Below, in pieces: positions 1-59,039 of a DNA stretch of 64,000 bases. This DNA comes from Eledone cirrhosa (lineage: Eukaryota). The DNA is taken from assembly GCA_964016885.1 (NCBI GenBank), contig OZ024743.1, forward strand, positions 362,266,001 to 362,330,000, written 5' to 3'. The notes under the pieces are model-generated. The model was not told where the DNA came from. It saw only the letters and a program-made list of their open reading frames with translations, and did not search any database. The number at the start of each line of letters is the position of its first letter. Position 1 is the first letter of the stretch. The translations under genes and the position numbers were made by a program.

Positions 1-1
1 A

Positions 2-544
2 ATCTAGTCGATATCTATCGGCCAGGTCAAATCGGTCGATTAACTGTTTGAGGCTGTTACACCCCCCTTTATCGGGACATGCTCCCACATAGTCCCAACG
101 TGCATCTAGGATTCCATTCCAGTCCCCCACTAAAAGCAAGGAGCGGGACGTTCCCAGAAAAGTCTCTAGACGTTTGAAGAAGTCTGGCCGCGGTGTCCCG
201 GATGGGGCATATGCGGCCACCAGCCTGAACGCACCACCTTCACTACCGTCAACGTCTAGGACCACCAGTCGACCCTCCGGGTCCAGATGTACCGTCTGTG
301 TTACGAGGCCCAGGTGTTTCCGCAGCAAAACGGCAACTCCGCCCCCACCCCCCGGTTGACAGAGAGATGCGTAGATCTCAAAGTCATCGAAGATGGGGGC
401 CAGCTGTCGCTCGCCGTGGATCCTGGACTCGCAAATGGCTACCACATCCAAACTGTGCGACCTGAGGTCGTTTAAGAGTTTGCCCTGTTTCCAGGGCATC
501 CCCAGGCCGCGTACGTTCACACATCCAACTCTTATATTGGCCAT
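2..544 (-). CDS. Tx1-like ORF2, APE endonuclease N-terminus (partial)
   Basis: Matches copy B ORF 5346-5855 (NVRG, ICES, YAP and GDWN motifs); ATG in CCAACATGG context. Confidence 0.8.
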   Translation of the reverse strand, partial: MANIRVGCVNVRGLGMPWKQGKLLNDLRSHSLDVVAICESRIHGERQLAPIFDDFEIYASLCQPGGGGGVAVLLRKHLGLVTQTVHLDPEGRLVVLDVDGSEGGAFRLVAAYAPSGTPRPDFFKRLETFLGTSRSLLLVGDWNGILDARWDYVGACPDKGGCNSLKQLIDRFDLADRYRLD

Positions 545-577
545 GTTGGTGCTGAAAAGTTAAAAGAGGAAAAGAGA

Positions 578-1894
578 TCACTCACCCTTCGCCTCCTGGG
601 GACCAGGCCGCACGATTTCCATGGGGGTGTTGGAGGGGTTGTCTGGATGGGTGGTGGTTTCCGGCGGGGTGGGGACGCAGATGTTTGGTGGGGTGGGGTC
701 TGGTGGGATGGGGGTGTCTGGGGTGGGGAGGCATTTGAGAAGGACGCGGTTGAGTGGTTTCACGCAGGAATTCCCCACATCCTTCTCAAATGTTTCTTTT
801 AGGGACCTATAAGTTTGTATAGGGACCCTAATCAGTTTTAGGTTCATTTTTTTGCTATTTTTTATAGAGTGGGCGAAAGTTTTCCCTTCGGTGAAAACCG
901 AAGGGTCGTTCGTGATGGTCTCCATTAGTGTTTTGTTTTCAGTGTTTATGTAAGTGTAAGTGTAATTTTCTTGTGTTGTGTTTGTTTTTGTCTGTAGTTC
1001 TTGTGTGTGCTTTCGTTTTGTTGTAGGTATTTTGTTTTCAGGAGGTGGGGGTTTTGTTTGTGATATTTTTGTTGTTTGTGTTGGTGGTTGTATGTTTGTG
1101 GTAGTGTTTGCTGGTTTTTTGCTTTTGTGATGTCTTTTCTTTCTTTTCGAGCGATGGGGTTCTCCCTCGTCTTCACTGGGTGATGGCGAGATAGCCTCAT
1201 CTGTTGTATCGTGTGTGTGATTGGGGAGGGGTATGTCTTGGGGAGCTGTTGTGTCTGTATGTGATTTTGAAGTGGTTTTAGGTGGAGTGAGGTTGGGTGG
1301 GACTGTGTTTGTTGTGGTTATTTTTGTGTGTTGGTGTTGTTGTTGTAGTGGTGGTGTTGGTGGTTGTGTTGTTTTGATGGGTGTTGGCAGAAGAGCCTTT
1401 TTTTGGTTCATTAGTTTAGGACAGGAAGCCCTCAGGTGACCCCTGCTAAAGCAATGGTAACATGAAGGCCGCCTACCCTCAACCGAAAGGTTTATGTAGG
1501 TAAGTCCGTCCAGGAGTACACGCTGTGGGATCATAGCTATTCGCTCTGGGCTCATTTGCACCAGAACTTCAATGCTAGTCCCATTGAATACATCTCTGGG
1601 GGACTTGCCTACTGACAGTATTCTGTCTTCATCAAAATTGATGAAGCCGCACAGTATCCACCATATGTTCACCTTTGGTGTGACACTTGTGACTCTGATC
1701 TTTTGTGTCCTTTTTCCCATGTATGTAGGGAAAAAGGTGTACAGGTTGGATACAATTGGCGACACAGAGTAATTTTGGGCCGTCAATTGATCCTTCATCA
1801 GTACCGAAATACTCCCAAAAAGTTTGCTTCTTTGAATGAATGCAATATCATTCATTGAATCTTTGAAAACCAGTTCAATATCTTTCTGTGACAA
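578..1894 (-). CDS. Tx1-like ORF1 nucleic-acid-binding protein, C-terminal 438 aa (N-terminal part in frameshifted ORF 1929-2465)
   Basis: C-X2-C-X4-H-X4-C zinc knuckle, basic patch RSKRKKRHHK and Pro/Thr-rich tail. A ~30 nt deletion relative to copy B near 2005 appears to break the N-terminal frame. Confidence 0.8.
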   Translation of the reverse strand: MSQKDIELVFKDSMNDIAFIQRSKLFGSISVLMKDQLTAQNYSVSPIVSNLYTFFPTYMGKRTQKIRVTSVTPKVNIWWILCGFINFDEDRILSVGKSPRDVFNGTSIEVLVQMSPERIAMIPQRVLLDGLTYINLSVEGRRPSCYHCFSRGHLRASCPKLMNQKKALLPTPIKTTQPPTPPLQQQHQHTKITTTNTVPPNLTPPKTTSKSHTDTTAPQDIPLPNHTHDTTDEAISPSPSEDEGEPHRSKRKKRHHKSKKPANTTTNIQPPTQTTKISQTKPPPPENKIPTTKRKHTQELQTKTNTTQENYTYTYINTENKTLMETITNDPSVFTEGKTFAHSIKNSKKMNLKLIRVPIQTYRSLKETFEKDVGNSCVKPLNRVLLKCLPTPDTPIPPDPTPPNICVPTPPETTTHPDNPSNTPMEIVRPGPQEAKGE

Positions 1895-2685
1895 TTGGAC
1901 TGGTTTTCGGGTAGAATTGGAAACTGTCCTAAAAACTATCGTTTTGAGAGCAGTTTCCTTGCGAATTTCTACCGGAGAATTGATGCTGAAAGCACCATTT
2001 TTTTAAAAGGTGTTCAGCATTTGTTATGTCGAGATATATCAATTGTTCTTTCTTTTGAACTTTCTCCGCAAAGGAGATTTTTGGTTTCTTTGTGGAATCC
2101 GTATTGGTGGTGTTGTCATTATTGTTGTTATTCTTGTTGTTATTCTTGTTGTCACCGATGTTGGTATCATCCGTATTTTCCTTGGTGTTGTTGTTGTCTT
2201 TGATGCTGGTGTTATTGGCGTTGTCTTTATTTTTTTCTTTGTTGTTGTTATCATTGTTGCTTTTATCATCATTATTGGTTTTGCTGTTATTTTTGTTGTC
2301 ATTGAGCTGTTTGGTGTCATTTGTGTTGTTTGGATGTGAATTCGTTTTTTTATTTTCATTTTGTCTTTCCATCTCTATAGTATCTAGTGAAGAAGACGTT
2401 GTTGACTGCGAGCTTTGTAGTCTTACCGCCTCTCCACCGCCATTATCGTTGGACGCAGCGTTCATAACGTAATCAAAATTTTACAATATTTTTTTTTCCA
2501 AGATTCGATGGAGAAAAATTTTTTAAATGGATATTCCGCCCCTGAAGGGGCGAAAATGAGTTGACCCACCACCTGAAGGTCCAGACGGGTGGTCAAGTTA
2601 CACAATGATATAAAATTGAACTAAAAACTCACGTTTTTTCCTTACATAAATTAACGGAAACTTCTCCGCGAAGTGACACACGACT

Positions 2686-2721: not shown

Positions 2722-5700
2722 TGTTTCTTTATTAGCAACAGGGGCACAAAAGAAGGGGACAAATACAAAGGGGGAAGTTTACATACAATAAAAACGTGTA
2801 AAATGTTATCACAAATGCAATTCAAAAAGTTAGTCGATTTTCCCCCAATAGGAGGAGACAGTTCATATGGGTAACACATACCCCCGAAAAAATGTGCAAC
2901 CCTCAACTCCAGGAGTACGAAGAGTTTGTACTCCCTTCCTCTTCTCCTTTTCCTCAACCTACAGGCTGATATAGAGAGAAGGCCCATTCACTCGGGCCAT
3001 TCTCGCCACTTTCACCCACCTTTCATAAAACTTGCTGGGGTGCAACACCTCTCTCTCCATCCTGATTCTTCTTCCAAAGTGGTATTTGAAAAAAGAACCA
3101 GTTGTTGGCCGGAGAGAAAGGTGTCTGACCTCAGCCCTTTCAACCTTGTCCACCATACAACCTCTTTCGCCATAGCTATCACACAAAGGAAAACCGCCTC
3201 TCCTTCGTTTTTGAAGGAGGGTGGCAGTTTGATCATGACAATGGACTCGGTGGTCAACCGGATTGGTCCCACCCGCGACAATAGTCGTTCTACATAGCCC
3301 CACAGGTCAGTGACGTCCGGGCAGTGTATGAATGCGTGCGCGACGGTTTCTTCGTTACGCACGCACCTCGGAGAGATCTTTTTTGAAGGGTCCCTGCCCG
3401 GGCGCCCATGTCTGTAGAACTTATCTCGAACTGGTAGAGCTCCTCGGTAGCACTGCCAGGCCAGGGACTTTTGGAAGTTGTCCATCGGTCCCGGGCGGAA
3501 GGTCCTACCGAACAGACTGGTCAGTTCATCTTCCTCTACGCCTAGAGTTTCACCGAGCGCGTCGTTGCACTTGCTGCGGATCAACCCTCTATAGAATGAC
3601 GAAGTGCAATCTCCACTGATCGCCGGGGCCGCCTGCCAGAGGTCTGTGAACGCCTGAGCATATTCGATGTGCCAGTCGCCCATTTTCCTCGGTCTCTGCT
3701 TGACCCAGGACTGCAGCTCGGTCAGTGAGACGAGTCGTGGGAAGGCTCGCCTCACGAACGGGGCCCACACCTGTTGTCCGGTGAGGAATACGTAGAGATG
3801 CCACAGCCTGAGCGCGTGTTTGCGCATCGTCAACCACGGCATCCCCAGCCCTACGTTATAAGGGTGTTGGCAGCAGATGGATCTTCTCACCAAAGGAGCC
3901 CGCCTCTTCCAAAGGAATTGGAAGAGCGCGCATTCCATTTTGGCGAGCGTTTTGGCTGGACAAGGCACGACGGTCAAGCGGTAGTAGATGGCGGACGCTA
4001 TAAAAGTGTTCGCCACTTCCGCTCGACCTTTCAAGGATAGTTTGCACTCGGCCCACTTCTGGGTGAGTGCAAACACCTTGGCCGTCACTTAGTTCCAGTT
4101 CTTCTCCACCTGGAGGTCCGGACCAAACCAGACCCCGAGCAGCTTTACCGGTCCTTCCGTCCAGCGTCCGACGACGCCATCGGAAGGCATCGGTTTGCCT
4201 CTCCACGATCCGAGTTGCAAACCGATGGACTTGTCCCGGTTCAGCTTCGCTCCTGTGAAACTTTCGTATTCCTCCAGTAAGGTGGCGACTTCCTCGATTT
4301 GTAGGCGCTCGACACCATTACTGTCACGTCGTCGGCGTAGGCCGACGCCGCTTTCCGCAGTCCCGGTTCCAGAGGGATGCCCTGCAATAGCTCCAACTTC
4401 CGCAGTAGTGGCTCGAGAGTGAATACGTACAGTCCGGCATTGCTACGTAAAATTCGCATGGTAGACCGTCGAGACCTGGAGATTTGTGTTTGCCGCATTG
4501 GCTCAACGCGTCCCCTATCTCAGCGGCTGAAATCGGCTTTTCGCAGAACTTTGCCTCGCTGTCCGAGAGTCGCGGTAGGCCGTCGAGGTATGGACCGAAA
4601 TCCATAGCCCCTCCCGGTGCGCCGCCCCGCCCGAACAGTTGAGCAAAGTGCCGCTGAAAGGCCGCACATATCTGCTTCGGCTCACGTATCACGCGTCCGT
4701 TTTGGTCCTTCAAAGACCGAATCGTGGACTTGTTGCCACTTTTTGCCTCCGTCACACGGGCCCAGCTAACAGCTTTGGCTCCCTCGTTTCCCAGAGCACG
4801 TATTTTGCTTCTGACAACGCAGCCCTCGTGCTTTGCATCGAAGAACTGGTCCAAGGCCGTTCTCGTTGTTAGCACTCTGGCTACGTTGCCACTTCTAATT
4901 GCCTCTTCTACTTTATCTACCAGTTCCTTCTCGGTTCTATTTCTATCTAACGCTAATTCTTTACTAAAAACTAACGAGTCTAATCTAACTGCCCTCTTGA
5001 GAGAGTACCACCATCTGTTGTTGACAATGGCCCCTGTCAAGTGCTGTTTAACTAAAGTGCTAATCCGTCTACTGTAGGCTTTGCTTGTCGGTAACGACAA
5101 GTTCAGCTTCCAGTAGCCGGGTCCTTGTCAATGGGTTCTATCAAGGTTGGCCATGCAGGTCGCTAGTTTGTGATCTGAATAGGCAACCATGAACATTTGT
5201 GGACAGCTTAACATGTCCCTATCCTCATTTCTAACTAGAACCCTATCTATGTACGATCTAGATGTTCCGCTACGATTACTCCACGTCCACAGTGGCACAG
5301 TCGGAAAATCTAGTCGATATCTATCGGCCAGGTCAAATCGGTCGATTAACTGTTTGAGGCTGTTACACCCCCCCCCCCTTTATCGGGACATGCTCCCACA
5401 TAGTCCCAACGTGCATCTAGGATTCCATTCCAGTCCCCCACTAAAAGCAAGGAGCGGGACTTTCCCAGAAAAGTCTCTAGACGTTTGAAGAAATCTGGCC
5501 GCGGTGTACCGGATGGGGCATATGCAGCCACCAGCCTGAAAACTCCACCTTCACTACCGTCAACGTCTAGAACCACCTGTCGACCCTCCGGGTCCAGATG
5601 TACCGTCTGTGTTACGAGGCCCAGGTGTTTCCGCAGCAAAACGGCAACTCCACCCCCACCCCCCGGTTGACAGAGAGATGCGTAGATATCAAAGTCATCG

Positions 5701-8034
5701 AAGATGGGGGCCAGCTGTCGCTCGCTGTGTATCCTGGACTCGCAAATGGCTACCACATCCATACTGTGCGACCTGAGGTCGTTTAAGAGTTTGCCCTGTT
5801 TCCAGGGCATCCCCAGGCCGCGTACGTTCACACATCCAACTCTTATATTGGCCATGTTGGTGCTGAAAAGTTAAAAGAGGAAAAGAGATCACTCACCCTT
5901 CGTCTCCTGGGGACCAGGCTGCACGATTTCCATGGGGGTGTTGGAGGGGTTGTCTGGGTAGGTGGTGGTTTCCGGCGGGTTGGGGACGGAGATGTTTGGT
6001 GGGGTGGGGTCTGGTGGGATGGGTGTGTCTGGGGTGGGGAGACATTTGAGAAGGACGCGGTTAAGTGGTTTCACGCAGGAATTCCCCACATCCTTTTCAA
6101 ATGTTTCTTTTAGGGACCTATAAGTTTGTATAGGGACCCTAATCAGTTTTAGGTTCAGTTTTTTGTTATTTTTAATAGAGTGGGCGAAAGTTTTCCCTTC
6201 GGTGAAAACCGAAGGGTCGTTCGTGATGGTCTCCATTAGTGTTTTGTTTTCAGTGTTTATGTAAGTGTAAGTGTAATTTTCTTGTGTTGTGTTTGTTTTT
6301 GTCTGTAGTTCTTATATGTGCTTTCGTTTTGCTGTAGGTATTTTGTTTTCAGGAGGTGGGGGTTTTGTCTGTGATGTTTTTTGTTGTTTGTGTTGGTGGT
6401 TGTATGTTTGTGGTAGTGTTTGCTGGTTTTTTTGCTTTTGTGATGTCTTTTCTTTCTTTTCGAGCGATGGGGTTCTCCCTCGTCTTCACTGGGTGATGGC
6501 GAGATAGCCTCATCTGTTGTATCGTCTGTGTGATTGGGAAGGGGTACGTCTTGGGGAGCTGTTGTGTCTGTATGTGATTTTGTAGTGGTTTTAGGTGGAG
6601 TGGGGTTGGGTGGGACTGTGTTTGTTGTGGTTATTTTTGTGTGTTGGTGTTGTTGTTGTTGTGGTGGTGTTGGTGGTTGTGTTTTTTTGATGGGTGTCGG
6701 GAGAAGAGCCTTTTTTTACTCATTAATTTAGGACAGGAAGCCCTCAGGTGACCCCTGCTAAAGCAATGGTAACATGAAGGCCGCCTACCCTCAACCGAAA
6801 AGTTGATGTAGGTGAGTCCGTCCAGGAGTACACGTTGTGGGATCATAGCTATTCGCTCTGGGCTCATTTGCACCAGAACTTCAATGCTAGTCCCATTGAA
6901 TACATCTCTGGGGGACTTTCCTACTGACAGTATTCTGTCTTCATCAAAATTGATGAAGCCGCACAGTACCACCATATTTTCTCCTTTGGTATGACACTCG
7001 TGATTTTAATCTTCTGTGTCCTTTTTCCCATGTATGTAGGGAAAAAGGTATACAGGTTGGATACAATTGGCGACATAGAGTAATTTTGGGCCGTCAATTG
7101 ATCCTTCATGAGTACCGAAAAACTCCCAAAAAGTTTGCTTCTTTGAATGAATGCAATATCATTCATTGAATTTTTGAAAACCAGTTCAATTTCTTTCTGT
7201 TACAATTGGAATGATTTTCGGGTAGAATTGGAAACTGTCCTAAAAACTATCGTTTTGAGAGCAGTTTCCTTGCGAATTTCTACCGGAGAATTGATGCTGA
7301 AAGCACCATTTTTTTCGAAAGTGACATATCTCAGTAGCGTCCTTTAAAAGTTGTTCGACATTTTTTATGTCGAGATATGTCAGTTCCTCCTTTTTTTGAA
7401 CTGTCTGTGCAAAGGAGATTTTGGTTTCTTTGTGGAATCATCCGTGTTGGTGGTGTTGTCATTATTGTTGTTATTGTTTGTGTTATTCTTGTTGTCACTG
7501 ATGTTGATATTATTCGTATTTTCCTTGGTGTTCGTGTAGGTGTTGTTGTTGTCTTTGATGCTGGTGTTATTGGTGTTGTCTTTATTTTTTCTTTGTTGTT
7601 GTTGTCATTGTTGTTTTTATCATCATTATTGGTGTTGTTGTTATTTTTGTTGTCATTGAACTGTTTGGTGCATTTGTGTTGTTTGGATATGAATTTGTTT
7701 TTACATTTTCATTTCGTCTTTCCATCTCCATAGTATCTAGGGAAGAAGACGATGTTGACTGCGAGCTCTGTAGTCTTACCGACTCTCCACCACCATTATC
7801 GTTGAACGCAGCGTTTATAACGTAATCAAACTTCTTATATTTTTTCCAAAATTCGATGGAGAAAAAATTTTTCAAACGAATATTTCGCCCCTATAGGGGC
7901 GAAAATGAGTTGACCCACCACCTGAGGGTCCAGACGGGGGGTCAAGTTACACAATAATATAAAATTTAACTGAAAACTCACGTTTTTTTCTTACATAAAA
8001 TAACGGAAACTTCTCCGCGAAGTTACACACGTCT

Positions 8035-8035
<1 letters not shown>
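2722..8035 (-). mobile_element. Tx1-like LINE copy B, both ends present, internal RT deletion and frameshifts
   Basis: ORF1 fragments 5889-7875; APE 5346-5855; linker 4324-5100 (KSPGLDG); YADD in 4241-4498; C-terminal zinc finger PRCVRNEETVAHAFIHC in 3012-4088; AATAAA at 2728-2733 (minus). Confidence 0.9.
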
Positions 8036-8150
<115 letters not shown>

Positions 8151-11100
8151 TGTTTCTTTATTAGCCACAGGGGCACAAAAGAAGCGGACAATTACAAAGG
8201 GGGGAGTTTACATACAATAAAAATGTGTAAAATGTTATCACAATTGTAATTTAAAAGTTAATCGATTTTCCCCAATAGGGGGAGACAGTTCATATGGATA
8301 GCACATACCCCCGAACAAAATGTGCAACCCTCATCTCCAGGAGTACGAAGAGTTTGTACCCCTTTCCTCTCTTCCTCTTTTTCCTCAACCTACAGGCTGA
8401 TATAGAGAGAAGGCCCATTCACTCGGGCCATTCTCGCCACTTTCACCCACCTTTCATAAAACTTACTGGGGTACAGCACCTCTCTCTCCATCCTGATTCT
8501 TCTTCCAAAGTGGTATTTGAAAAAAAGAATCAGTTGTTGGCGGAGAGAAAGGTGTCTGACCTCAGCCCTTTTAAGCTCGTCTACCATACAACATCTTTCG
8601 CCATAGCTATCACACAAAGGAAAACCGCCTCTCCTTCGTTTTTGAAGGAGGGTGGCGGTTTGATCATGACAATGGACTCGGTGGTCAACTGGATTGGTCC
8701 CACCCGCGACAATAGTCGTTCTACATAGCCCCACAGGTCGGTAACACCAGGGCAGTGTATAAATGCGCGCGCGACGGTTTCTTCGTCTCGCACGCATCTC
8801 GGACATATCTTTTTTGAAGGGTCCCTGCCCGGGCGCTCATGTCTGTAGAGCTTGTCTCGAACTGGTAGAGCTCCTCGGTAGCACTGCCAGGCCAGGGACT
8901 TTTGGAAGTTGTCCATCGGTCCCGGGCAGAAGGTCCTACCGAACAGACTGGCCAGTTCGTCTTCCTCCACGCCTAGATTTCTCCGAGCGCGTCGTTGCAC
9001 TTGCTGCGAATCAACCCTCTATAGAATGACGAAGTGGAGTCTCCACTGATCGCCGGGTCCGCCTGCCAGAGAGCTGTAAGCGCCTGAGCACATTCGATGT
9101 TCCAGTCGCCCATTTTCCTCGGTCTTTGCTTGACCCAGGACTGCAGCTCGGTCAGCGAGACGAGTCGTGGGAAGCCTCGCCTCACGAATGGGGCCCACAC
9201 CGGTTGTCCGGTGAGGAATACGTAGAGATGCCGCAGCCTGAGCGCGTGTTTGCGCATCGTCAGCCACGGCACCCCAGCCCTCCATTGGAAAGGTGTTGGC
9301 AGCAGATGGATCTTTTCACCAAAGGATCCCGCTTCTTTCAAAGGAAGTTGCCTATGTCATTCCCCTTATTCTCGTCCTTCCTGACTAGTGTGACTACGCC
9401 CCTGGTCACAGAACTAGAAATTCTCCCGTTCTACTGCCAGTTGCAGTAGACCGCTTCCAGGAGACCGGAGAATAAGTCCGGCATTGCTACGTAAAATTCG
9501 TAGGGTGACCGTCGAGACCTGGAGATTTGCGTTTGCCGCATTGGCTCAACGCGTCCCCTATCTCAGCGGCTGAAATCGGCTTTTGGCAGAACTCCGCCTC
9601 GCTGTCCGAGAGTCGCGCTAGGCCGTCGAGGTATGGACCGAAATCCATAGCCCTTCCCGGCACGACGCCCTGCCCGAACAGCTGAGCAAAGTGCCTCTGA
9701 AAGGCCGCACACATCTGCTTCGGCTCACGTATCACGCGTCCGTTTTGGTCCTTCAAAGACCGAATCGTGGACTTGTTGCCACTTTTTGCCTCCGTCACTC
9801 GGGCCCAGCTAACAGCTTTGGCTCCCTCGTTACCCAGAGCACGTATTTTGCTTCTGACAACGCAGCCCTCGTGCTTTGCGTCGAAGAACTGGTCCAAGGC
9901 CGTTCTCGTTGCTAGCACGGTGGCTACGTTGCCACTTCTAATTGCCTGTTCTACTTTATCTACCGGCTCCTTCTCGGTACTATTTCTATCTAACGCTAAT
10001 TCTTTACTATAAAACTAACCATTCTAATCTAACTTCCGTCTTGAGAGAGTACCACCATCTGTTGTTGACAATGGCCCCCGTCAAGTGCTGTTTAACTAAA
10101 GTGCTAATCCGCTTACTGTAAGCTTTGTTTGTCGGTAAGGACAAGTTTTGCTTCCAGTAACCGGGTCCTTGTCTATGGGTTCTATCAAGGTTAACCACTC
10201 CGGTCAGCAACTTGTGATCCGAATAGGCAACCATGAACATTCGTGGACAGATTAATATGTCCCTATTCTTGTTTCTAACTAGGAACATATCTAGGTACGA
10301 CCTAGATGTTGCGCTACACAGTGGCACAGTCGGAAAATCTAGTCGATATCTATCGGCCAGATCAAATCGGCCGATTAACCGTTTGAGGCTGTTACACCCC
10401 CCTCTATCGGGACATGCCCCTACATAGTCCCAACGTGCATCCAAGATACCATTCCAGTCCCTCACTAAAAGCAAGGAGCGGGACGTTCCCAGAAAAGTCT
10501 CTAGGCGCTGGAAGACATCCGGTCGCGGTGTCCCAGATGGGGCATACGCTGCCACCAGCCTGAAGGCTCCACCTTCGCTACTGCCGACGTCTAGAACCAC
10601 CAGTCGACCCTCCGTCCAGGTGTACCTTCCGTGTTGCGAAGCCCAGGTGTTTTCGTAGCAGAACGACCACCCCGCCCCCACTCTCCGGCTGACAGAGAGA
10701 TGCATAGATCTCAAAGTCGTCGAAGGTGGGGGCCAGTTGGTGCTCGCTGCTGATCCTGGACTCACAAATAGCTATCACATCCATCTGTGCGACCTGAGGT
10801 CATTTAAGAGTTTGCCCTGCTTCCAGGACATTCCCAGGCTGCGCACATTTAAACATCCAACTTTTATAACAGCCATGTTGGTGGTGAAGAGTTAAAGTGG
10901 AGAAAAAGGAAAAGACACCTACCTGTCCCTCTCCTGGGGACCAGGCTGCACACTCTCATTGGGGGTGTCAGAGGGGTTGTTTGGTGTGGTGGTGGTTTGG
11001 AGTGTGGTGGGAACATCAGTGTAGGAACATCAGTGTTTGGTGGGGGAGGGGTGTCTGGGTTGGTGGTGGGAAAACATTTCAAAAGGACGCGATTGATGGG

Positions 11101-13224
11101 TCTAGTACAGGAGTTCCCCACGTCCTCGGGGAAGTTCTGTTTGAGCATTGCGTAGGTGTCCCTTGGGACCCTAATCCTTTTTAAATGCGATTTAGTCGCC
11201 GCGTTGGTGAACATTTTCCCTTCGGTTTCCACCGAAGGGTCTTTGTCTATTGTTTGTACAAGTGTTTTGTTGTTTGTGTTGATGTATGTATACTGTTTTT
11301 GTTGTGTTGTGTTTGTTTGTTGTTCTTGTGTGTTTGCGTTTTGTAGTATGTGTTATGTTTTCGGGAGGGGTGGGTTTTTTGTTTGTGATATTTGTTCTGT
11401 TTGGGCTGGTGATTGTGTGTTTGTTGCATTTTTGTTAATGTGGTGCTTTCTTTTCTTTCTTTTTACTGGTTGAAAGGGTTCTCCCTCGTCGTCACTGGGT
11501 GACGTTGATAAGGAGTCCTCGTCTGTGTTGTTGGGGAGGGGCATATTTTGGGGTTTTGTTGTGGTTGTGGGTGCTTTTGTGTTTGTTTTAGGTGGGGAAG
11601 GGTTGGGTGGGACGGTGTCTTGTGTTGTTATTTTTTCGTGTTGTGGTTGTTGTTGTTGTTGTTGTGGTGGTGGTGGTGGTGGTGGTGGTGGTGGTGGTGG
11701 TGGTGGTGGTGGTGGTTGTGTTGTTGTTGTGTGTGGGGTGGGCAGGAGCGTCTTTTTTTTGGAGGGTGGCATTTAAAAGGGGAAGGGAGTCCTCAGGTGA
11801 CCACTTCTTGAACAGTGGTAGCATGAAGGCCGCCTGCCCTCGACAGAAATGTTTATGAAGGCAACTCCATCCAGGGACACCCGCTGCGGTATTCTTGCTA
11901 TCCGTTCTGGTCTCATTTGGACCAGAACTTCAAGGCTATTGCCGCTGAATACGCCCCCGGTGGATTCGGCTATCAAGAGGATTGTGTCCTCATCGTCTAA
12001 GAATCCCGTTAGCACCCACCAAATGCTCGCATTTGGCCTGATGCCCGAGATTCTTATCCTTTGAGTTCTTTTCCCCAAATATGTGGGGAAAAAGGTGTAT
12101 GATTCGGATACAATTGGCGATACAGAGTATTTCCGTGCCACCAATTGATCTTTCATTAGCACAGATATGCTTCCATACAGTTTCCCTTTCTGTATGAAAG
12201 CGATATCTTTCCAGGCACTACTTAGGACCACCTCAATTTTACTTTGGGATAATTGAGCCAGTTTCCTAGTTGCGGTGGAAATTGTTCTAAAAGTTAGTTC
12301 TGAGGACTGCGTCTTTTCTAATTTCTTCGAGGGAGGTAATTGTGAATTCCCCACCTTCCCCAAAAGTTACACAATTTCTTGCCTCCTTCAGCAACTCCCT
12401 GGCATTCGAGATGTCCAGTGCCCTGTAAGTCTGTGTCTCTCGGAGCGCCTATGCGAAAAAGACTCCAGTCGTGGGTCCGCTCTCTTTGGTGTTGTTATCA
12501 TTATTGTTGTTATTGTTGTTGTTGTTCTTGTTGTCACTGATGTTGATATTGTTCGTATTTTCCTTGGTGTTGGTGTTGTTGTAGTCTTTGATGTTGGTAT
12601 TATTGGTGTTGTCTTTATTTTTTGTTCTTTGTTGTTGTTGTCATTGTTGTTTTTATCATCATTATTGGTGTTGTTGTTGTTATTGTTGTTGTCATTGTAC
12701 TGTTTGGTGTCATTTGTGTCGTTTGGATTTGAATTTGTTTTTACAATTTGATTTCGTCTTTCCATCTCCATAGTGTTTTTTTCATGTGTATGTATGTTAA
12801 TAGGTTTAATTTCTGTGTTTTCATGTGAGTTAGTGTTATTTTTCTCCGCTTCGACGGTAGAAATTGTACAATTTTCGAGTAGTAACATTTTTTCCTCTTT
12901 GTTGACAGTCGTATCTATGGCGACATCCATAGTAGCAGAAGCAGATATAACGTTAATATCTGCTTCTTTCTCTCTCTTTTCTTTATTGACGTTCTCCAGC
13001 GTTCTTGTGTTGTTCAAGTTATATAGTTGGCAAAATTTGATATTTTAAAACAATTTTTAAAATAAAATGTTCGCCCCTAAAGGGGCGAAAAATGGCATTA
13101 CCACCCAGCTGACAATTCAGCTTCGAGGTTAATCTACAAAATAATATGTTTTTCCAAACAATTTGTTCTGTTTTTCGTATATAAATTTACAAAAAATCTT
13201 ACCGGCGATGTTTCACGCGTCAGA
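8151..13224 (-). mobile_element. Tx1-like LINE copy C, RT core deleted, probably chimeric
   Basis: ORF1 pieces 10864-13017 (CYHCSRSGHL); APE 10007-10876; linker 9487-9918; C-terminus 8390-9341 (CPRCVRDEETVARAFIHC). No YADD: deletion junction near 9347. Confidence 0.9.
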
Positions 13225-15798
13225 CAGAAAGATAGATAGATAACTTTCTTTTTATTTGCCACCAAGGCATCAAAGAGTGGGACAAGTACAATGGGGGGAG
13301 TTTACATAAAAAGGCGTCCTCACTAAGGAGGAGGCAATAACAAAATATAAAAATATAAAATATAAAATATAAGAAAAATAAATTGAATAACAAAATCCTC
13401 AATAGGGAGGAGGCGCCTTGGGGGGTCGCACACACCCGCGAAAAAAGTGTGCAACCCTTCTCCTCAGGAGCACAGAGAGAGGGTGCTCCCTTGATCTTTC
13501 AACTTTCTCACCTACAGTCTGGTGTAGAGTGAAGGCCCATTCACACGGGCCATTCTCGCCACTTTCACCCATCTTTCATAAAAACGGCTGGGGTGCAGTA
13601 CCTCTCTCTCCATCCTGATCCTTCTTCCGAAATGATATCGGAAGAAACGGACCAGTCGTTGGCCAGAGAGAAAGGTGTCTGACCTCAGTCCTTTCAGACG
13701 CGTCCACCATACAACCTCTTTCACCATGGCTATTACGCACAGAAACACCGCCTCTCCTTCGTTTTTGAAGAGAGGAGGCGGCTTGATCGTTACAATGGAC
13801 TCGGTGGTCAACCGGATCGGTCCCACCCCTGACAACAGTCGTTCGACATAGCCCCACAGATCGGCAATGCCCGAGCAGTGTACCAATGCGTGTGCAACGG
13901 TTTCCTCGTCGCACACGCATCTTGGACAGATCTTTTTCGGGGGGTCCCTACCCGGGCGCCCGTGTCTGTAGAGCCTTTCTTGAACGCGCAGAGCCCCTCG
14001 GTAGCACTGCCAGGCCAGGGACCTCTGGAAGTTATTCATAGGTCCCGTGCTGAATGTCCTACCGAACAGGTTGGCCAGTTCGTTTTCCTCCAATCCTAGG
14101 GCTTCTTCGAAGGCGTCGTCGCACCTGCTAACCACCAGCCCTCTATAGAATGACGAGGTGGATTCTCCACTGACAGCCGGGTCCGCCTGCCAGAGAGCCG
14201 TGAGCGCCTGGGCACACTCGGTGTGCCAGGCGACCAGTTTTCTCGGTCTTTGCTTGACCCAGGATTGCAGCTCGGTGAGCGAGACGAGTCTGGGAAAGGC
14301 TCGCCTCACAAACGGGGCCCACAACGGTTGACCGGTGAGGAATACCTGGAGGTGCCGTAGCCTTAATGCGTGTTTACGCATCATCAGCCACGGCATTCCC
14401 AGCCCTCCTTTCGAAGGGTGTTGACAGCAGATGGATCTCCTCACCATAGGAGCCCGCTTCTTCCAAAGGAATTGGAAGTGTGCGCCCTCCATTTTGGCGA
14501 GCGTTTCCCTTGGGCAAGGAACGATGGTCAGGCGGTAGTAGATGACGGACGCTATATAAGTGTTCGCCACCTCCACCTGACCTTTCAGGGACAGTTTACA
14601 CTCGGCCCACTTCTGGGTCAGTGCAAACACCCTGTTCGTTACCTCACCCCAGTTCTACTCCACCTGGAGGTCTTGTCCGAACCAGACCCCGAGCAACTTC
14701 ACCGGGCCCTCCGACCAGCGCCCGACGACGCCATCGGAGGGCATCGATTTGCCCCTCCACGTGCCGAGTTGCAGACCGATCGACTTGTCCCTGTTCAGCT
14801 TAGCCCCTGTAAACCTTTCGTACTCCTCCAGTAAGGTGCCGATCGCCCCAATTTCCGAGGCCGTCGACACCATTACTGTTACGTCATCGGCGTAGGCCGA
14901 CATCGCTTTACGCAATCCCGGTTCCAACGGGATGCCCTGCAACAACTCCAACTTCCGCAGCAGTGGCTCTAGAGTCACTACATATAGAAGGGAGCTGAGA
15001 GGGCACCCTTGTCGGATGGACCGCGCGATTTCGAAAGGCTCCGAGAAGTAGCCGTTCACCTTGACCCTAGAGTAGATGCGGCTGCTGTGCATGGCATTGA
15101 TCCAGCCCCTGAAAACGGGTCCGAACCCAGCCGCCGCTACGACCGCATCCAGGTAACCATGGTCGATCCTATCGAACGCCTTAGATTGATCCAAGTTGAT
15201 CAGGGCCCCACCAAAGCCGGGTTCGTTCCCAACCCTCTCTATGATGTATCACATGAGGTGGAGGTTGTCGTGGATGGACCTGGATGGGATAGCACATGTC
15301 TGCGCATCTCCCACCAGGTTGCCCACGACAAGTGCCAGCCTCTTTGCTAGCACCTTGGCCAAAATCTGTAACTCTGTATTTAGCAGAGTTATGGGCCTGA
15401 AATTATTTATATCGTCCCCCTTGTTCTCGTCCTTCCTCACTAACGTGACTACGCCCTTGGTCACAGAACAGGGAATTCTCCCGGTCTGTTGCCAGTTGCA
15501 GTAGACCGTCTCGAGGAGATCGGGGAACAAGTCCGGCATAGCTAGATATAGTTCGTATGGAAGACCATCGTGACTCGGGGATTTGCGTTTGCCGCATTGG
15601 CTCAGCAAGTCCTCTATCTCAGCGGCTGAAATCGGCTCCTCGCAGGACTTCGCCTCCATGTCCGAGAGACGCGGCAGGCCGTCGAGGTATGGACCGAAGC
15701 CCACTTCCCCAACCGGCTCCCCGCCCCTTCCGAACAATCTGGCAAAGTGCTTTTGAAAAGCCTCGCACATCTGCTTAGGTTCAAGGATCACCCGTCCA
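13225..15798 (-). mobile_element. Tx1-like LINE copy D, 5'-truncated, RT to 3' end with short (TATC) tail
   Basis: FRPITLLN, DQSKAFDRI, RQGCPLS, AYADD and CPRCVCDEETVAHALVHC in ORFs 15249-15791, 14655-15194 and 13512-14630. Confidence 0.9.
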
Positions 15799-35555: not shown

Positions 35556-38500
35556 AATGATTTCATTTATTGGCCACAAGGGCCGACATGTAGGGGACAA
35601 TACAAAGACACGGACAGTGGGGTTTACAATAAGGTCGAGTAAAAGTGCACAATGGCAAGACTAATTTAACAATGAAAATATAAAAATATATAAATAAACT
35701 ATGCATAAATATAACAAAATAAATTCTCCTATAGGGGGGTGGACGACTCAGGGGTGACTCAGATACCCAACCAATCCTGAACCACACAGCGCTCTTAGGG
35801 GACACGGGAGAGCACCCCTCTCCTCCTCAAATTAGCTACCCTATAGGCGCCTGGCCAGAGTAGGCCCATTCACACGGGCCATTCTCGCCACATTCATCCA
35901 CCTTTTAGTAAATGTACTAGGGAGCAGCACTTCTCTCTCCACCCTCACCTTCCTTTCCAGATAAAACTTGAAGAAGTTGATGAGGGATTGGCCGAAGAGA
36001 AAAGTGTCTGTCTTCACTCCTTTCAATCTGGTCCACCATATAACCTCTTCACTCCTTTCAATCTGGTCCACCATATAACCTCTTTCGCAACTGCCACCAG
36101 ACGGAAGAAAATTGCCTACTCTTCCTGGCCAAAGGAAGGCGGTGGGTTGATCTTCACTATGGACTCGGCCGATAGCCGGATCCGTTCTACACGCGACAAT
36201 AGCTGTTCGACCTTTAGGCAGAATATCAGGAGATGTCGCTGCCTCAGCACATGTCTGCGCATCATTAGCCACGGCACGCCCAGCCCTCCTTTTAGAGGCT
36301 GCTGGTAGCAAATGGACCGCCTCATAAACAGAACTTGTCCTCTCCACAAGAATGTGAAGAGGAGCCGTCCCAACTTGGCAAGGCGCATACGGGAGCAAGG
36401 CATGACAGTCAGGTGGTAGTAGATGACGGACGGGATATAAGCGTTTCGCCACCTTGGCGGGACCTTTCAGTGATAGCTTCCTCGCAACCCATTTCTGTGT
36501 GAGACTGCCTACCCTGCTCGTTACCTCGTGCCAATTCTTTTCCACCTGGAGGTCTAGTCCGAATCAAACCCCGAGCAACTTTACCGGTCCGTCCGTCCAG
36601 CGCCCCACGACGCTGTTGGACGGCATGAACTTTCCTCTCCAGGTGCCGAGCTGCAAGCCCACCGACTTTTCCGCGTTAAGTTTGGCTCCTGTCAACCCAT
36701 CATATTCCTTCAATAAGGTGCCGACCACCTCGATTTCCGAGGTGTCCGACACCATCACGGTGATGTCGTCCGCATAAGCCGACACAACCTTTCCACGTCC
36801 CGATTCGAGCGGGACACCCTACAACAGCTCCAGCTTACGCAGTAAAAGCTCGAGAGTAAGTACGTACAGAAGGGAAGAGAGAGGGCACCCTTGACGGCCC
36901 GTGTAAAGGAACTTTAACTTTAACAAAGCCATTAACTTTTACCACCGAGCAGGTGCAGCGATCCAGCTTCTGAAGACAGGGCCGGAGCCAGCTGCTTTGT
37001 GGACAAACACCAGATACCGATGGTCGACCCTATCGAATGCTTTCGATTGATCTAAATTGATCAGTGCCCACCGAAGCCAGGTTTACACCCTAACTACCCT
37101 CTCTATGATGAGGTTCCTTAACTACCCTCTCTATGATGTATCGCATGAGGTGGAGATTGCCGTGTATGGACCTGGCTGGGATTGCACAAGTTTGCGCCGC
37201 CCAACCAAATCCTCGACGACAAGCGCCAATCTCTTTGCTAACACCTTGGCCAAAATCTTAAACTCTGTGTTGAGCAGAGTTATGGGGCTGAAGTTGTCTA
37301 ATCTATCTCTCTTGTTCTCGTCTTTCCTTATCAGCGTCATCACTCCCCTGCTCACAGAACTGGGAATACTCCCATTGTGCTGCCTGCTGCAGTAGAGTGC
37401 TTCGAGAAGATCGGAGAACAAGTCTAGCATATTTACGTAAAGCTCGTAGGGCAGGCCATCCAAACCGGGTGATTTGCAGCCGACAAGGGCATCCTCAATT
37501 TCGGCTGAAGTAATCGGCCTTTCGCAGCGCTCAGCGTCAACCGTCGAGATGCGCGGCAAGCCGTCAAGGTAGAGGCTGATATCCGCTACTCTCTCTGACT
37601 CGCCACTCTCCCCGAACAACCGAGCAAAGTACTGGCGAAACGCCTCACACATCCACTTTGAATCGTTTATCTCGTGTCCGTCTCGGTCCGCCAAAGACCG
37701 AATTGTGGTTTTAATACCACGTTGCGCCTCCGCCACACGGGCCCATCGAACAGCTTTGGTTCCATCGTTTCTCAGCGCACGCGCCTTAGCTCTGACAATG
37801 CAACCTTCGTGTTTCGCATTTAAGAAATGGTCTAATGCCATTCTCGCCTCTAGCACGTCAGTTGCAATGCCACTACAAATAGCCTTGTCTCACTTATTAC
37901 CAGCTCCCTCTCCTTTCTATTTTTCTCTAGCGTTAGTTCTTTGCTGAATCCTATCGAAGTTACTCTAATCTCTCTTTTGAGAGCCCCCCACCATCTGTTG
38001 TTGATTATCCCTCCTGTCAATCTTTGCTTAACTAAATTGTTGACTCGGTCCTTGTAAGCCTTACGTGCCGGAAATGACATGTTCAGCTTCCAGTAACCAG
38101 GTCCTAACCTACGCATTTTATCAAGGTCGACTATACAGATCATAAATTTGTGATCTGAATAGGCGACCGTTTTAAAAAGTGGGCAGCCTAAACTATTTCT
38201 ATCTATTTTCCTAATGAAGATCCTGTCTATATACGATCTAGATGACCCCATGCGGTTGGTTCATGTCCATACTGGCGCATTGGGGAAATCTAGTCGATAC
38301 CTGTCAGACAGTTGGAACTGGCTGATTAGGTGCTTGAGGCTTTTGCACCCCACGCTCCTATCAGCTACTCCCACACAATCCCAGCGTGCGTCTAAGATGC
38401 CGTTCCAGTCCCCCGCTAACAGTAAAGGGCGAGACGTACCCAGAAAGGACTCAAGGCGCCTAAAGAAGTCCGGTCGTCCAGCCCCTGTAGGGGCGTAGAC

Positions 38501-39343
38501 GGCCAGCTGTCTAAAGGCACCACCTTTGCTAGTGCCCAATATCGAAGCCCACCAACTTAACGTCCGGGTGCCGGAAGATCGACCTTACCTCGAGATCCAG
38601 TCCTTTCCTAAACAGCACTGCCACCCCACCTCATTCCCGGCCTACTAACAGATGCGAAGATCTCATAGTCGTCGAAAATGGGAGCTAGTGCGCGCGTGTC
38701 GGAAATTCTGGTCTCGCACGGCAATCACATCCATTTCCAGCGACCTGAGGTCTTTGAGCAGGCGACCCGGCTTCCAGGGTGACTCCATGCCGCGAACATT
38801 TAAACTTCCTACTCTTAATATGGCCATGTTGGCAAAATAAAAGAGAGAGGGAAGGTTTACCTACCTTCCGGGGTTTTGTGAAGGTCGGGTGGTTCGACCT
38901 CCATGGTTGGTGGGGTTTCTTTTGGGAACCCCTTTAAAACTCTCGATGTGGGTTTCACATTCGGGGTTCACACGTCTTGAGGAAAGCTCTCCCGAATTTC
39001 TTTGAAGGAATCGAGTGACATTCGGACCAGAAGCAAATCTTCTGGCACGCAAAATGTGCTCATTTCAAAGATCTCCCCCTCTGTTTGAATGTCTTCGCTT
39101 CGTGCTAAGAGGCCCATTAGTTTATCGTTGGCCCTTCTGACAAACACGAAATTTTAACATTTTGTTGGTGTGGTTTTATTTGTTTTCGTTTTGGTGATTG
39201 TGGTGGTGATGGTTTCGGTGGTGTTGTTTCGGGTATGTCTGTGTTTGTTGTACGTATGGTGTCTGCAATTTCAGGTATTTGTGGGTTTATTTGTACTTGT
39301 GTTTGTTTAGTTTGTTTGCGTTTCGGGGATTGTGGGGGTGGTG
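35556..39343 (-). mobile_element. Tx1-like LINE copy E (5'-truncated in ORF1, degenerate ORF2)
   Basis: APE (YAPTG, GDWN), GYWKLN, KSPGLDG, FSPITLLN, AYADD and C-terminal fragments; 3' end CTTGTGGCCAATAAATGAAATCATT. Confidence 0.85.
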
Positions 39344-42300
39344 ATAATAATAATAATGGTTTCTTTATTGGCCACAAGGGCTAACACGATGAAAAACATT
39401 AAAGACGACACAGAACAGTACAGGACGATACAAAGTGGGTTTTGGTCGTGTAAACAGGTTATAACAAGATTGGACTAGAAATCAAAAAAAAACAAAAATT
39501 CATCAAAAAGGGGGAAACCTCCGAGGGTCACTCGTGGCGAAAACCACACAAAATGACCACGGCCGCCCTGACCACCAGGGCAAGCGCCCTCTCTCAGTTT
39601 TCCCACTCCTCAGTCTACAGGCGTCTACTCAGAGCGGGCCCGTTCACTCGGACCAAACTCGCCACTTTCACCCACCTTTCAACAACTTACTAGAAGACAG
39701 CACTTGTCTCTCCACCCTGATGATTTTCCTCTTCAAATGAAACTTTAAAAAGTTAATCAGATGAAAACTGCCTGCCCTTCCTCCTCTTTAAAGGAGGATG
39801 GCGGGGCTATCTCACAATGGACTTAGTCGATAACCGGATCCGTCCTACACGCGACAGCAGCTGTTCGACATAGCTCCACAAGTCAGCAATCATCGGGCAC
39901 TGAACGAGTGCGTGCAGGACGGTTTCGTCGCCCTGCGTGCATCTCGGACAGGCTCTTCTGACAGCACTCCCGTGCCTGTAGAGCTTATCCCGGGATTTCT
40001 GGAAGTTGTCCATAGGCCCCGGTCTGAATGTTCTCTTGAAGAGAGCGAACATCTGATCGTCTTCGACGCCCAGGGTCTCCCCGAGAACGTCGTCGCTCTT
40101 ACCCTCCACTAGCCCTCTATAGAACGCCAAGGTGGATGTTCCACTCGATAATAGTGCCCTGCTGGTAGAGGGCGGTGAGCGCTTGGAGATATTCCAGCTT
40201 CCAAACGCTATCCCTCGGTCTCTTCCTGATCCAGGACTGCAGCTCCGTCAAGGAGACGAGCTGGGGAAAACCGCGTCTGGCAAACAGTGACTACACCTGT
40301 TCACCGTCAAGGAAGAGCCAGAGATGTCGCAGCCTCAGCGCATGTTTGCGCACCATCAGCCACGGCATGCCTACTCCTCCACGCACGGGTGTTGACAGCA
40401 AATGGATCGTCTGACCATGGAAGCACGTCCCTTCCACAAAAAGCGGAAGAGAAGGCGCTCCATTTTGGTCAGACTTGGGCGGGGGCAATGTACGACGGTC
40501 AGGCGGTAGCAGATGACGGACGCTATGTACGCATTCGCCACCTCCGCCCGACTTTTCAGAAACAGCCTACTCGCGGCCTATTTCTAGGTGAGAGAGGACC
40601 ACCCTGCTCGTCACCTAGCTCCAGTTTTTCTCCATCTAGAGGTCCGGACCGAACCAGACCCCGAGAAATTTAACCGGTATTTCCGTCCAGCGCCCCACGA
40701 CGCTGTCGGACGGCATGGACTTGTCTCTCTAGGTGCCGAGTTGCAAGCCCACCGACTTTTCCTGGTTTATCTTTGCTCCTGTCACCGCTTCGTATTCCTT
40801 GAGAGTGGTGCCGAGTATCTGGACGTGTTTGGTGCTCGACAACACCACGGTGACGTCGTTGGCGTAGGCTGACACGGATCTCCCGCATCCCAGTTCGCGT
40901 GGGACCCTCATCGTCTCCAATTTGTCCAGTAACGGCTCGAGGGCCATTACCGATGGTAGACCCTATCAAATGCTTTAGATTGATCCAAGTTGATCAGGGC
41001 CCCACCCGTGCCAGGTTCCTTAACTACCCTCTCTATGATGTATCGCATGAGATTGAGGTTGTCGTGGATGGATCTGTTCGGAATGGCGCATATCTGCACC
41101 TCTCCCACCGGATCACCGACGACAAGCGCCAATCTCTTTGCTAATACCTTGGGCAAAATCTTAAACTCTGCGTTTAGCAGAGTTATGGGCCTGAAGTTGT
41201 CTATAACGTCCCTCTTGTTCGGGTCTTTTCTCAGCAACGCCACCGCTCCCGGCTCATAAAACTGGGAATGCTCCCGTTCTGCTTCCAATTGCAGTAGACA
41301 TCTGCCAAGAGGTCGCCTAACAAGTCTGGCATATACGCATAAAGCTCGTAGGCCAGACCATCCAAACCTCGCGATTTACCCCTCGTGCAGTCAGACATCG
41401 CTTCCGGTATTTCACCTGCTGTTATCGGCTTTTCGCAGCACTGCGCTGCGGTCGTCGATAGCCGCGGCAGTCCGTCGAGGTATGCACCGACGTCCATACT
41501 CCGGTCCGGCCCGCCGCCGCTCCCGAACAATTGAGCAAAGTTCTGTTGAAAAGCTGCACACATCTGCTCGGGTTCGAGCAACATGCACCCGCTGTGGTCA
41601 GGAAAAGACCGAATTGTGGACTTGTTGCCACGCCGCGCGTCCACCACCCGGGCCCATTGAACGACTTTCGTCCCCTTGTGTCTTAGAGCAAGCGCTCTAG
41701 CTCTGACAACGCAGCCTTCATGCTTTGCGTTGAAGAATTTGTCGAGTGCCAATCTCGCCGCAAGCACGTCGGTTACTATGCCTGTCCTAAACGCCTCTTC
41801 TAGCTTTCTAACTAGCTCTCCCTCTACTCTATTTTCCTCTATCACTACTCCTTTTCTAAACCTTATCGATTCTACTCTAATAGCCCTTTTCAGGGTAAAC
41901 CACCACCTGTTGTTGACGATCGCATCCGTCAATGCACGCTTAACTAATTCGCTAATCCGGTCTCTGTAAGCTTTGCGCGCCAGGAACGATGCGTTCAGCT
42001 TCCAGTACCCGGGCCCTTGCCTATTGAGTCTATCTAAGTCAACTTCACAGATCAAAAATTTGTGGTCTGTGTAGTCGACTACTTGAAATTGTAGACAACC
42101 CACACTAGCCTTATCTGTATACCTACAGAATACCCTATCTAAATATAATCTGGATAACCCGATGCGGTTTGCCCATGTCCACATTGGCACATTCGGATAA
42201 TCCAGTCTATAACTGTCAGACAGTTCAAATAGTCTGGGAAGTTTGTTGAGACTTTTACACCCTCCTGCCCTGTCTACTAGCCCCACATAATCCCAGCATG

Positions 42301-44184
42301 CATCTAAGATACCGTTCCAGTCGCCCACTAACACTAAAGAGCGGGACGTTCCAAGAAAGGTAATTTTTTTTAATTAGTTTTCTCAGTGTTGTTGTCTTTG
42401 TTCACGTTGTTTGTGGTGCTGCTTGTTGTATGAATTTCACTAACTCTCCTCTCAACTTATAATCCGTTGTCACACGACAGCAGACATCTTGCTGGGGAGG
42501 CGTGGATCAGCCATGTTTTTTTTTTTTTTTTTTTTCAAAAGTAAAATGTTCAAATATTGTTCAAACCCAAGAAAGGTCTCTAGAAAGGTCTTTAGCTTGA
42601 AAGCATTGCCTTGGCTGCCAGTCACGTCCAGCACCACCGACTTACCTTTTGGGTCCAGGAAGATGGCCCGTATGGCGAGATCCAAGCCTCTCCGAAAAAG
42701 CACGGCAACCCCTCCCCCCGATCCTGGACGGCTTGGAGATGCGTATACATCGTAGCCGCCGAAGATCGGTGCGAAGGCTCGTGCTGTGGAGATTCTGGTT
42801 TCGCTGATGGCCACCACATTTATGTTTAGTGACCTGAGGTCGTTGATCAGGTGACTCTGCTTCCAAGATGACCCCAGGTCACGTACATTTATACTGCCTA
42901 CTCTAAGTACGGCCATGTTGGATGAGAAACGGCGTAAGTTAGAAAGGATCACTTACCTTGATCGTGTGGTGAAGGGACAGTAGAAGCGCCCCTTTGGCTG
43001 GTCATGAGTGTTTCCAAGAGGATGTCTGTGAATATCCTCTTGGTAACCGACCCTCTGAATTATCCAACTGCGTTGGGGAATTTTTGTTTTAAAAGTTTGT
43101 AATGTTCTATTTTGATTTCAATGATGTTTATGTTTGTCGCGAGAGTTCTTGGTGTTGGTGGGGTGTAGTAGTTTTTTTTCTGTGATTTTCTGCTTTATAT
43201 GTTGTAAGAGTTCTTTATTTGCCATGTTTATGGCTGTGTACTTTTTGGGGGTAGGGGTGATTTTGTTGCTGTTTTCTTGTTACTGTTGGGTGTGTGTGTT
43301 TTGTTGTGTTTGCGATGTTGGTGTTTTTTGGTGACGCTGGTGGTGGTGTGGTTGTTGTTGTTGGTGATGCTTGTGGTGGTGATGGTGATGGTGGTGGTGT
43401 TGCTGCAAGTCTCCTTGCAGCCTTTACCCCTCTTCGTTTGCCTTCGCTTTTGGAGGGTGAAGCTAAGGGGTTTTTGTTTTTTTGTTTTTTGTGGCAGACC
43501 TTTTTCCACTTCCCTCCCACCTCATACTCCATATCGGATTCCGTGGCGTCTGGGAGGGGTATGAGCTCCACCGCTGTTGGTGGTGGTAGTGGAGCCCACT
43601 CCGGCGATTTTGCCGCCCGTGTAGCTACTGCGACTGCTGATGATGCCGCCACTGCTGTCGCTATTTTAGTTCTTAGTAGCCTTGGTATGGGTGCCACGGA
43701 CGTTTCTCTCCTATTCAATATCGAAGGGTATTCTGCCTCTGTTGCCTGCCCTGCTCTTTGTAGCAGCGGATCCGGCGTCGGAAGGAGAGGGGGGCCTTCT
43801 TCTTGGCTGTCTTCTGCGAGCAGAAGGCCCTGAGGTGACCCTACTGCCCACAGAGATAGCAATATGGGCGCCTTCACTCCACGCTTATAGGGAGCTGGAG
43901 TCCTTCTTCGAGGTCTAAGATACCTGGGATGTCCTCGATGCACTCCTGGGTAGTCTGTATTAGCATTTGCATGCCTCTTCCTGACCAGTTCTCTCTTCCC
44001 ATTCTCTGTATTTGCAATATGGTGGACTTCTCCTCGATTCCAGCCATATTATACTTTCCCCTTCACAGGGCAAAGTCCAAGGGCTTATATCCCTTACACA
44101 ACAAGAAAATTTAACAACAAATAATTATAACAGGTAAATAAAGCGACTTACTGGGAGCGAGCAAAAAAGACGTCCAAACCGACC
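39344..44184 (-). mobile_element. Tx1-like LINE copy F with (ATT)n tail, degenerate
   Basis: ORF1 remnant 42955-44110; APE from ATG at 42916; 367-aa ORF 41231-42334; DQSKAFDR; AYAND; CPRCTQGDETVLHALVQC. Confidence 0.85.
42362..42566. other. 205-bp insertion in copy F endonuclease, flanked by an 11-bp direct repeat
   Basis: CCAAGAAAGGT at 42351-42361 and 42567-42577. Confidence 0.7.
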
Positions 44185-57406: not shown

Positions 57407-57571
57407 AGGGAATAACTGACTTAATTTCCTGTCCACATTCGCCACCCACCATTCAGAGAAAAAATTATGATCTGTGGAGTTTTTAATGAAACTACAGGAT
57501 CGGTTGTTTGTTCTCCTGTAGAGTTCCTTTCAATATAATTATCGTTTTTATCATTGTTTAATTATTGTTAA

Positions 57572-58999: not shown

Positions 59000-59039
59000 T
59001 GATATTGTACATTTCACTGTATAATATTATTGTTATATT

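Follow-up and report, generated by a model that had tools for sequence, protein, structure and literature searches.

Why should a LINE (long interspersed nuclear element) carry a 5′ splice site at the very point where its first protein ends? LINEs are taken to express both of their proteins from a single unspliced bicistronic RNA. The question is raised by a 64,000-nucleotide stretch of the 3.0 Gb genome of Eledone cirrhosa (contig OZ024743.1, forward-strand positions 362,266,001 to 362,330,000), referred to below as the window. It holds L1/Tx1-type LINE copies, all on the minus strand and some of them in tandem on (TATC)n. At all five junctions between open reading frame 1 (ORF1) and ORF2, a splice donor motif overlaps the ORF1 stop, as an earlier note on this DNA had claimed. 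We conclude that the ORF1-stop donor is a real, conserved feature and, judging from sequence, likely functional. On balance, we lean towards a donor that is used by the spliceosome and whose purpose is a regulated removal of ORF2, which would yield an ORF1-only mRNA. The excision of ORF2 itself is a proposal.

The five donors are listed here by their coordinates in the window. Family letters (A, B, C, E, F, I, Z2, M, N, K, H and so on) are labels of this analysis, and a slash within a splice motif marks the boundary with the intron.

580 to 588, minus strand: element A donor AGG/GTGAGT, phase 1, first intron base 585, overlapping the last ORF1 codons
5891 to 5899, minus strand: element B donor AGG/GTGAGT at the ORF1 stop, first intron base 5896
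10917 to 10925, minus strand: element C donor CAG/GTAGGT, phase 2, first intron base 10922
38859 to 38867, minus strand: element E donor AAG/GTAGGT, phase 1, first intron base 38864
42951 to 42959, minus strand: element F donor AAG/GTAAGT, phase 1, first intron base 42956

The donor lies 41 nucleotides (nt) from the ORF2 ATG in A and B, 46 in C, 37 in E and 40 in F. The ORF1 frames that the earlier note had inferred for C (phase 2, ending ...KDR and stop) and F (phase 1, ending ...QGK and stop) are confirmed by other copies, and the GTAGGT of E is a variant of this copy, its family carrying GTAAGT. Two parts of the earlier picture need revision. The five motifs are present but not independent, A and B belonging to one family group (~95-99%), so that four related families are represented; and although the surrounding sequence was said to be unalignable between families, A, B and C do align in their ORF1 tails. 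Fusion of ORF1 to ORF2 by a mini-intron can be ruled out, since the spacers of C, E and F have no AG, and splicing to the nearby AG in A and B, with a loss of 33 nt, would not bring the two ORFs into one frame.

Conservation of the motif extends well beyond the window. Among 67 copies with both ORF2 ends, out of 106 fetched stretches, 63 carry the strict donor [AG]G/GTRRGT. With the donor kept out of the ORF2-start patterns used to choose loci, 55 of 65 had the strict form, and the remaining 10 were variants with one or two changes. We scored each site by its match to a nine-position consensus in 12 representatives of related families (68-97% ORF2 DNA identity). The junction site scores 8-9 of 9 in all 12, and ranks top or joint top among the ~260-300 sense GT sites of each; elsewhere, an equal score occurs in ~0.3% (0.003) of 10-nt windows. 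Its codon phase differs between families, being phase 1 (GGT RAG TRA) in A, E1, E2 and F, and phase 2 (AGG TAR) in I, Z2, M, N, N2, K, C and H. That the motif is kept while the phase changes indicates that nucleotides, rather than a peptide, are conserved.

Evidence for use of the donor comes from hybrid elements joined at it. In the first type of join, an A-related ORF1 tail (...GAAGAG) is followed, in place of GT, by the last 23 nt of the ORF1 of Z2. Two genome searches returned 17 and 18 pattern matches to it. The parent type has 480 matches, and of 30 sampled, 27 have GT after the same tail, two are point variants and one is a hybrid. In Z2 itself, those 23 nt follow a CAG that is preceded by 92 AG-free nt, and the ORF2 of the hybrids is 94-97% like that of Z2. 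Unlike that of the parents, the hybrid ORF1 (L364-L368) continues for ~20 codons and overlaps the start of ORF2, with its stop 10 nt into that frame. In a second join, found in three copies, the same donor leads into a hybrid of the first type at a position 75-76 nt upstream, after a CAG that follows 41 AG-free nt. Diagnostic bases in all three copies assign the upstream segment to type X1 and the downstream segment to the first hybrid type, which indicates a second event rather than a duplication.

The tandem order A then Z2 is found in the genome (L043). The simplest reading is that both joins are fossil splice junctions of read-through RNA from tandem arrays, later retrotransposed, and at least occasional cutting of the donor by the spliceosome is, in our view, highly probable. 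The background of such joins is low: by the same test, which is blind to joins whose first base is G or whose second is T, none were found after the donors of Z2/M/N or A/B. None of 14 rearranged or shortened copies inspected has its breakpoint at the donor. Four runs gave a donor joint in none of the 15 cases shown of 172, and a run with X4 (88% likeness; 6 of 95 loose ends shown) gave four of four joints, none at the donor; the contigs were of unrecorded type, and these runs are uninformative either way.

Does the donor occur outside these related families? Proteins ~40% identical to ORF2 led to LINE arrays on contigs of one bacterial metagenome-assembled bin (L233-L276), where such eukaryote-type tandem arrays are most likely host DNA contamination. 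In this distant lineage, a donor (TAA G/GTAAGT) immediately follows the ORF1 stop and precedes the ATG by 13 nt. Of the 41 loci that match the start pattern, all 41 have it; they overlap, come from one bin and count as one lineage. Placed at the ORF1 stop and before the ATG, it occupies the position that an ORF1-only message needs. A second donor-like site lies ~14 nt past the ORF2 stop, followed by a pyrimidine tract and by three or four AGs 34-55 nt on. Another family of the same bin (L270) carries CAG/GTAAGT 40 nt past its ORF2 stop. As a separate observation made by eye, the ORF2 stop of the distant lineage bears a hairpin with arms GGGTCC and GGACCC around TTAG or TTCG.

If ORF2 is removed, an acceptor must lie near its end or beyond. 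The earlier note had suggested CTGTAG/G at the ORF2 stop, which remains plausible, and element B offers the following candidates.

2959 to 2968, minus strand: element B candidate acceptors, CAG at 2966-2968 and the ORF2 stop TAG at 2959-2961

The ORF2 stop call begins TAG in 59 of 67 copies and in all 12 representatives, and 8 of 12 families have their first AG of the ORF2-end region 7 nt upstream of this TAG. When the donor is joined to the first AG in the last 27 nt, ORF1 stops within three codons in 11 of 12 families, compared with 5 of 12 under a swapped phase and 4 of 12 under phase 0. Joining it to the TAG has this effect in 8 of 12 families (2 of 12 with swapped phase). The first-AG rule was formulated after the failures of the TAG had been seen, and the evidence from the phase match is modest. 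The pyrimidine fraction at the ORF2-end acceptor region is 0.58-0.74, with two competing AGs, and is confounded by the stop and by the helix described below. In the 12-family alignment, no conserved acceptor was found deeper in the 3′ untranslated region (UTR). Two other candidates were rejected: one apparent junction from donor to ORF2 stop proved to be an unspliced copy with a one-base insertion, and a back-spliced ORF2 circle is ruled out by the missing conserved upstream acceptor. A scan of viral contigs found nothing.

The two ends of ORF2 are also predicted to pair. The strand from approximately intron position +7 to the CC of CCAAC, just before the ATG, would bind a purine tract that begins with the last G of the ORF2 stop.

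545 to 585, minus strand: element A ORF1-ORF2 spacer, its pyrimidine tract the predicted 5′ helix strand, with CCAAC before the ATG
5856 to 5896, minus strand: element B spacer, predicted to pair with 2929-2960 at -31.6 kcal/mol
2929 to 2960, minus strand: element B purine tract from the ORF2 stop, the predicted 3′ helix strand

This helix is predicted in the same register in all 12 families, with roughly 20-35 bp and energies of -14 to -34 kcal/mol. It would close ORF2 as a loop, covering the start context and the first bases past the stop. Cognate spacer-UTR pairs are enriched (double-centred permutation p 2e-5), in families that are related. On this modelling, the helix is likely real, with a large compositional part. 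A distinct hairpin with GGCCC/GGGCC arms directly before the ORF2 stop (window 2976-3004, minus strand) was seen by eye in all families.

These observations can be assembled into a mechanism. Part of the RNA would be spliced from the ORF1-stop donor, usually to the AG at the ORF2 stop or 7 nt before it, removing ORF2 and leaving an ORF1-only mRNA. The spliced product would encode an essentially unchanged ORF1 protein (ORF1p). An exon junction at a stop codon is beyond the range of nonsense-mediated decay, and the proposed junction at the ORF1 stop would thus escape it. By masking both the acceptor and the ATG context, the helix would keep most RNA at full length and so set the balance. In read-through RNA from a tandem array, the donor would instead join an AG in the ORF1 tail of the next element, and the product could retrotranspose as a new hybrid family. 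We offer only tentatively the wider proposal that the whole of ORF2 is a regulated intron gated by a start-to-stop helix, with the donor acting as a programmed ORF1-swapping point that creates replicating hybrid families. What stands of the claim that a splice donor removes ORF2 is the working donor, for which conservation across phases and lineages and the two joins argue; the removal of ORF2 is plausible.

A number of observations weigh against ORF2 excision or against the splicing origin of the joins. The upstream part of the first join is 69-78% like X1 over 600 nt, its exact upstream parent not being among the samples. Each seam has a 2-nt AG microhomology that would permit a template switch, the search for joins was aimed at donors only, and both joins bypass the element's own ORF2-end AGs. 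L270 has no donor at its ORF1 stop, and none was seen by eye in metagenome relatives at 27-31%, among the long-ORF loci of 33. At the acceptor, TAG/G may follow from helix pairing to the CC of CCAAC together with the need for a stop codon, making splicing unnecessary as its cause. The first-AG rule fails in family A, the window's own, where the TAG works; the TAG rule fails in H, M, N and N2; and the phase match rests on approximately one concerted change on the tree. E1, E2 and F have a weak pyrimidine tract, with 40-67 of ~265 AGs equally good. As for the helix, only 6 of 12 rows have the cognate UTR as their best partner, the spacer pairs equally or better with other windows of the element in 8 of 12, and an out-of-sample spacer (X2) reaches -29 to -34 kcal/mol with its own UTR yet pairs better with those of A and C. 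Finally, three genome motif searches covering A/B and Z2/M/N, and not C, K, I, H, E or F, found no ORF2-less copies, the kind of ORF1-only copy, lacking ORF2 from the donor GT, that the earlier note had proposed to look for as a check. Cis-preference would make such processed copies rare (PMC5860796).

That no ORF2-less copies were found in the families searched is also what would be expected if the site were kept for binding the U1 small nuclear ribonucleoprotein, in the service of 3′-end control, stability or export, with accidental splicing having produced both hybrids. This alternative, raised in the earlier note, is the strongest competitor, although we regard it as unlikely. It draws on the distant lineage, where the donor-like site ~14 nt past the ORF2 stop lies only 34-55 nt from the next AGs, and on L270, which carries only a post-ORF2 donor. 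Donor-like TAG/GTRAG sequences also occur at the ORF2 stop of several families (scoring 7 of 9 in 3 of 12), and premature termination is suppressed by U1 in the EVD element (PMC5580714). The case is weakened by the apparent cleavage of the donor and by the scarcity of poly(A) hexamers for U1 to silence: AWTAAA is absent from ORF2 in 6 of 12 representatives and occurs 0-6 times in the ORF1 region upstream of the site. Mere binding would not require the ORF1-stop position in two lineages, nor does it account for the first-AG stop match in 11 of 12 families.

Alternatively, the helix could be a translational device to which the donor is secondary, hiding the ORF2 start until ribosomes finishing ORF1 open it, or bringing the stop beside the start. 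Its geometry suits this role: in 12 of 12 families the helix has the CC of CCAAC as its anchor and starts next to the ORF1 stop, 7-9 nt past the donor. However, such a device leaves the retention of AG/GTRAGT across phases unexplained, and the distant lineage has the donor and a 13-nt spacer with no such helix by eye. We therefore consider it improbable. Least probable of all is that the site is ancestral sequence, or a signal in protein or DNA with a chance likeness to a donor, with the hybrids arising by microhomology template switches. Descent of the families from one ancestor (68-97% ORF2 DNA identity), the AG at both seams and a donor in human L1 whose retention is ascribed to a RUNX3 site (PMC5860796) speak for it. 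Against it stand the two seams, which are independent yet fall at the same base and both end in CAG beyond a long stretch free of AG, and the recurrence of the motif in a lineage at ~40% protein identity, where its place with respect to the stop differs.

The elements themselves fit an L1/Tx1-type non-LTR (long terminal repeat) retrotransposon: LTRs are absent and an AATAAA lies near the 3′ end. An intact relative (L039) is 5.84 kb long, with an ORF1 of 638 aa and an ORF2 of 1145 aa. ORF2 of this type contains the Pfam domains Exo_endo_phos (APE) and RVT_1, with zf-RVT at the C-terminus, and its closest solved structure is human L1 ORF2p (E 6e-52). The separate, upstream ORF1 has no Pfam match and one CCHC knuckle (CX2CX4HX4C), read from the sequence. 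The A junction returned 40 of 40 scored matches at 100%, among 1613 candidates in the genome, which indicates that family A is young. Families A, I, Z2, M, H and C show (TATC)n flanks and tandem arrays. The E and F copies (window 35856-44691) end in (ATT)n and not (TATC)n, suggesting a different target repeat. This target-sequence specificity would place the elements in the Tx1 rather than the L1 clade, a label that draws on anatomy and the earlier note's call. Further features of the window are as follows.

578 to 2465, minus strand: element A ORF1, 638 aa in intact copies, with one CCHC; this copy is frameshifted near 2001-2011
1 to 544, minus strand: 5′ part (APE endonuclease) of element A ORF2, which is 1145 aa, open, and runs past the window start
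2725 to 8035, minus strand: element B, near full length, with an internal deletion, frameshifts and (TATC)n flanks
13512 to 13514, minus strand: ORF2 stop of the 5′-truncated element D, CTGTAG/GTGAG

Element C (window 8154-12774) is chimeric, with a C-family 5′ part and an A-like 3′ part from ~9345. At 54515-60843, a long (ACC)-rich array with 84-bp and 34-bp minisatellites gives rise to spurious long ORFs. Just downstream of the LINE copy at L039 lies an exon (6560-6790), which by eye we take to resemble a Cys-loop ligand-gated ion channel.

Among known systems, the nearest parallel is the subgenomic splicing of gag in Ty1/copia elements (Arabidopsis EVD, Drosophila copia). There the structural gene ends in a conserved 5′ splice site, from which alternative splicing produces excess structural protein, over an intron of ~3 kb in Drosophila copia, while U1 also protects the full-length RNA (PMC5580714). 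The LINE shares this placement of the 5′ splice site. Copia and EVD, however, are LTR elements whose single gag-pol frame acquires its stop by splicing. The present LINE has two ORFs and an ORF1 stop of its own, its ORF2 is predicted to be enclosed by a helix, and its splicing is proposed from genomic DNA. By analogy, the LINE may work like copia without being a member of copia-type gag splicing, being non-LTR with two separate ORFs. The human L1 SpIREs use a 5′ UTR donor within one element; splicing of L1 RNA is described as harmful, and the SpIREs as dead ends (PMC5860796). As with SpIREs, genomic copies here appear to preserve splice junctions of LINE RNA; unlike them, the donor stands where ORF1 ends, the joins run between two families, and the first join has at least 17-18 copies.

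Tx1 elements that target microsatellites include Kibi on (TC)n, Koshi on (TTC)n and a crocodilian family on (TTCC)n (PMC4494074), and L1-Tx1 families are known in Octopus vulgaris (PMC13282606). The present elements resemble the microsatellite-targeting ones in their two ORFs, an ORF2 with APE, reverse transcriptase and zinc finger, microsatellite insertion and tandem arrays, and differ in targeting (TATC)n for most families. The available excerpts of these two papers report no donor, intron or helix, and 'splic' occurs 0 times in PMC13282606. The titles and abstract openings returned by literature searches describe no ORF1-stop donor, ORF2 intron or ORF2-closing helix in a LINE, although subscription papers, Repbase reports or supplements could hold one.

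If the proposed mechanism is true, the ORF1-stop donor would give LINEs a second way to an excess of ORF1p over ORF2p, converging on the solution of copia. Spliceosomal joining of read-through RNA from tandem arrays would likewise represent a concrete route for the exchange of ORF1 between LINE families.
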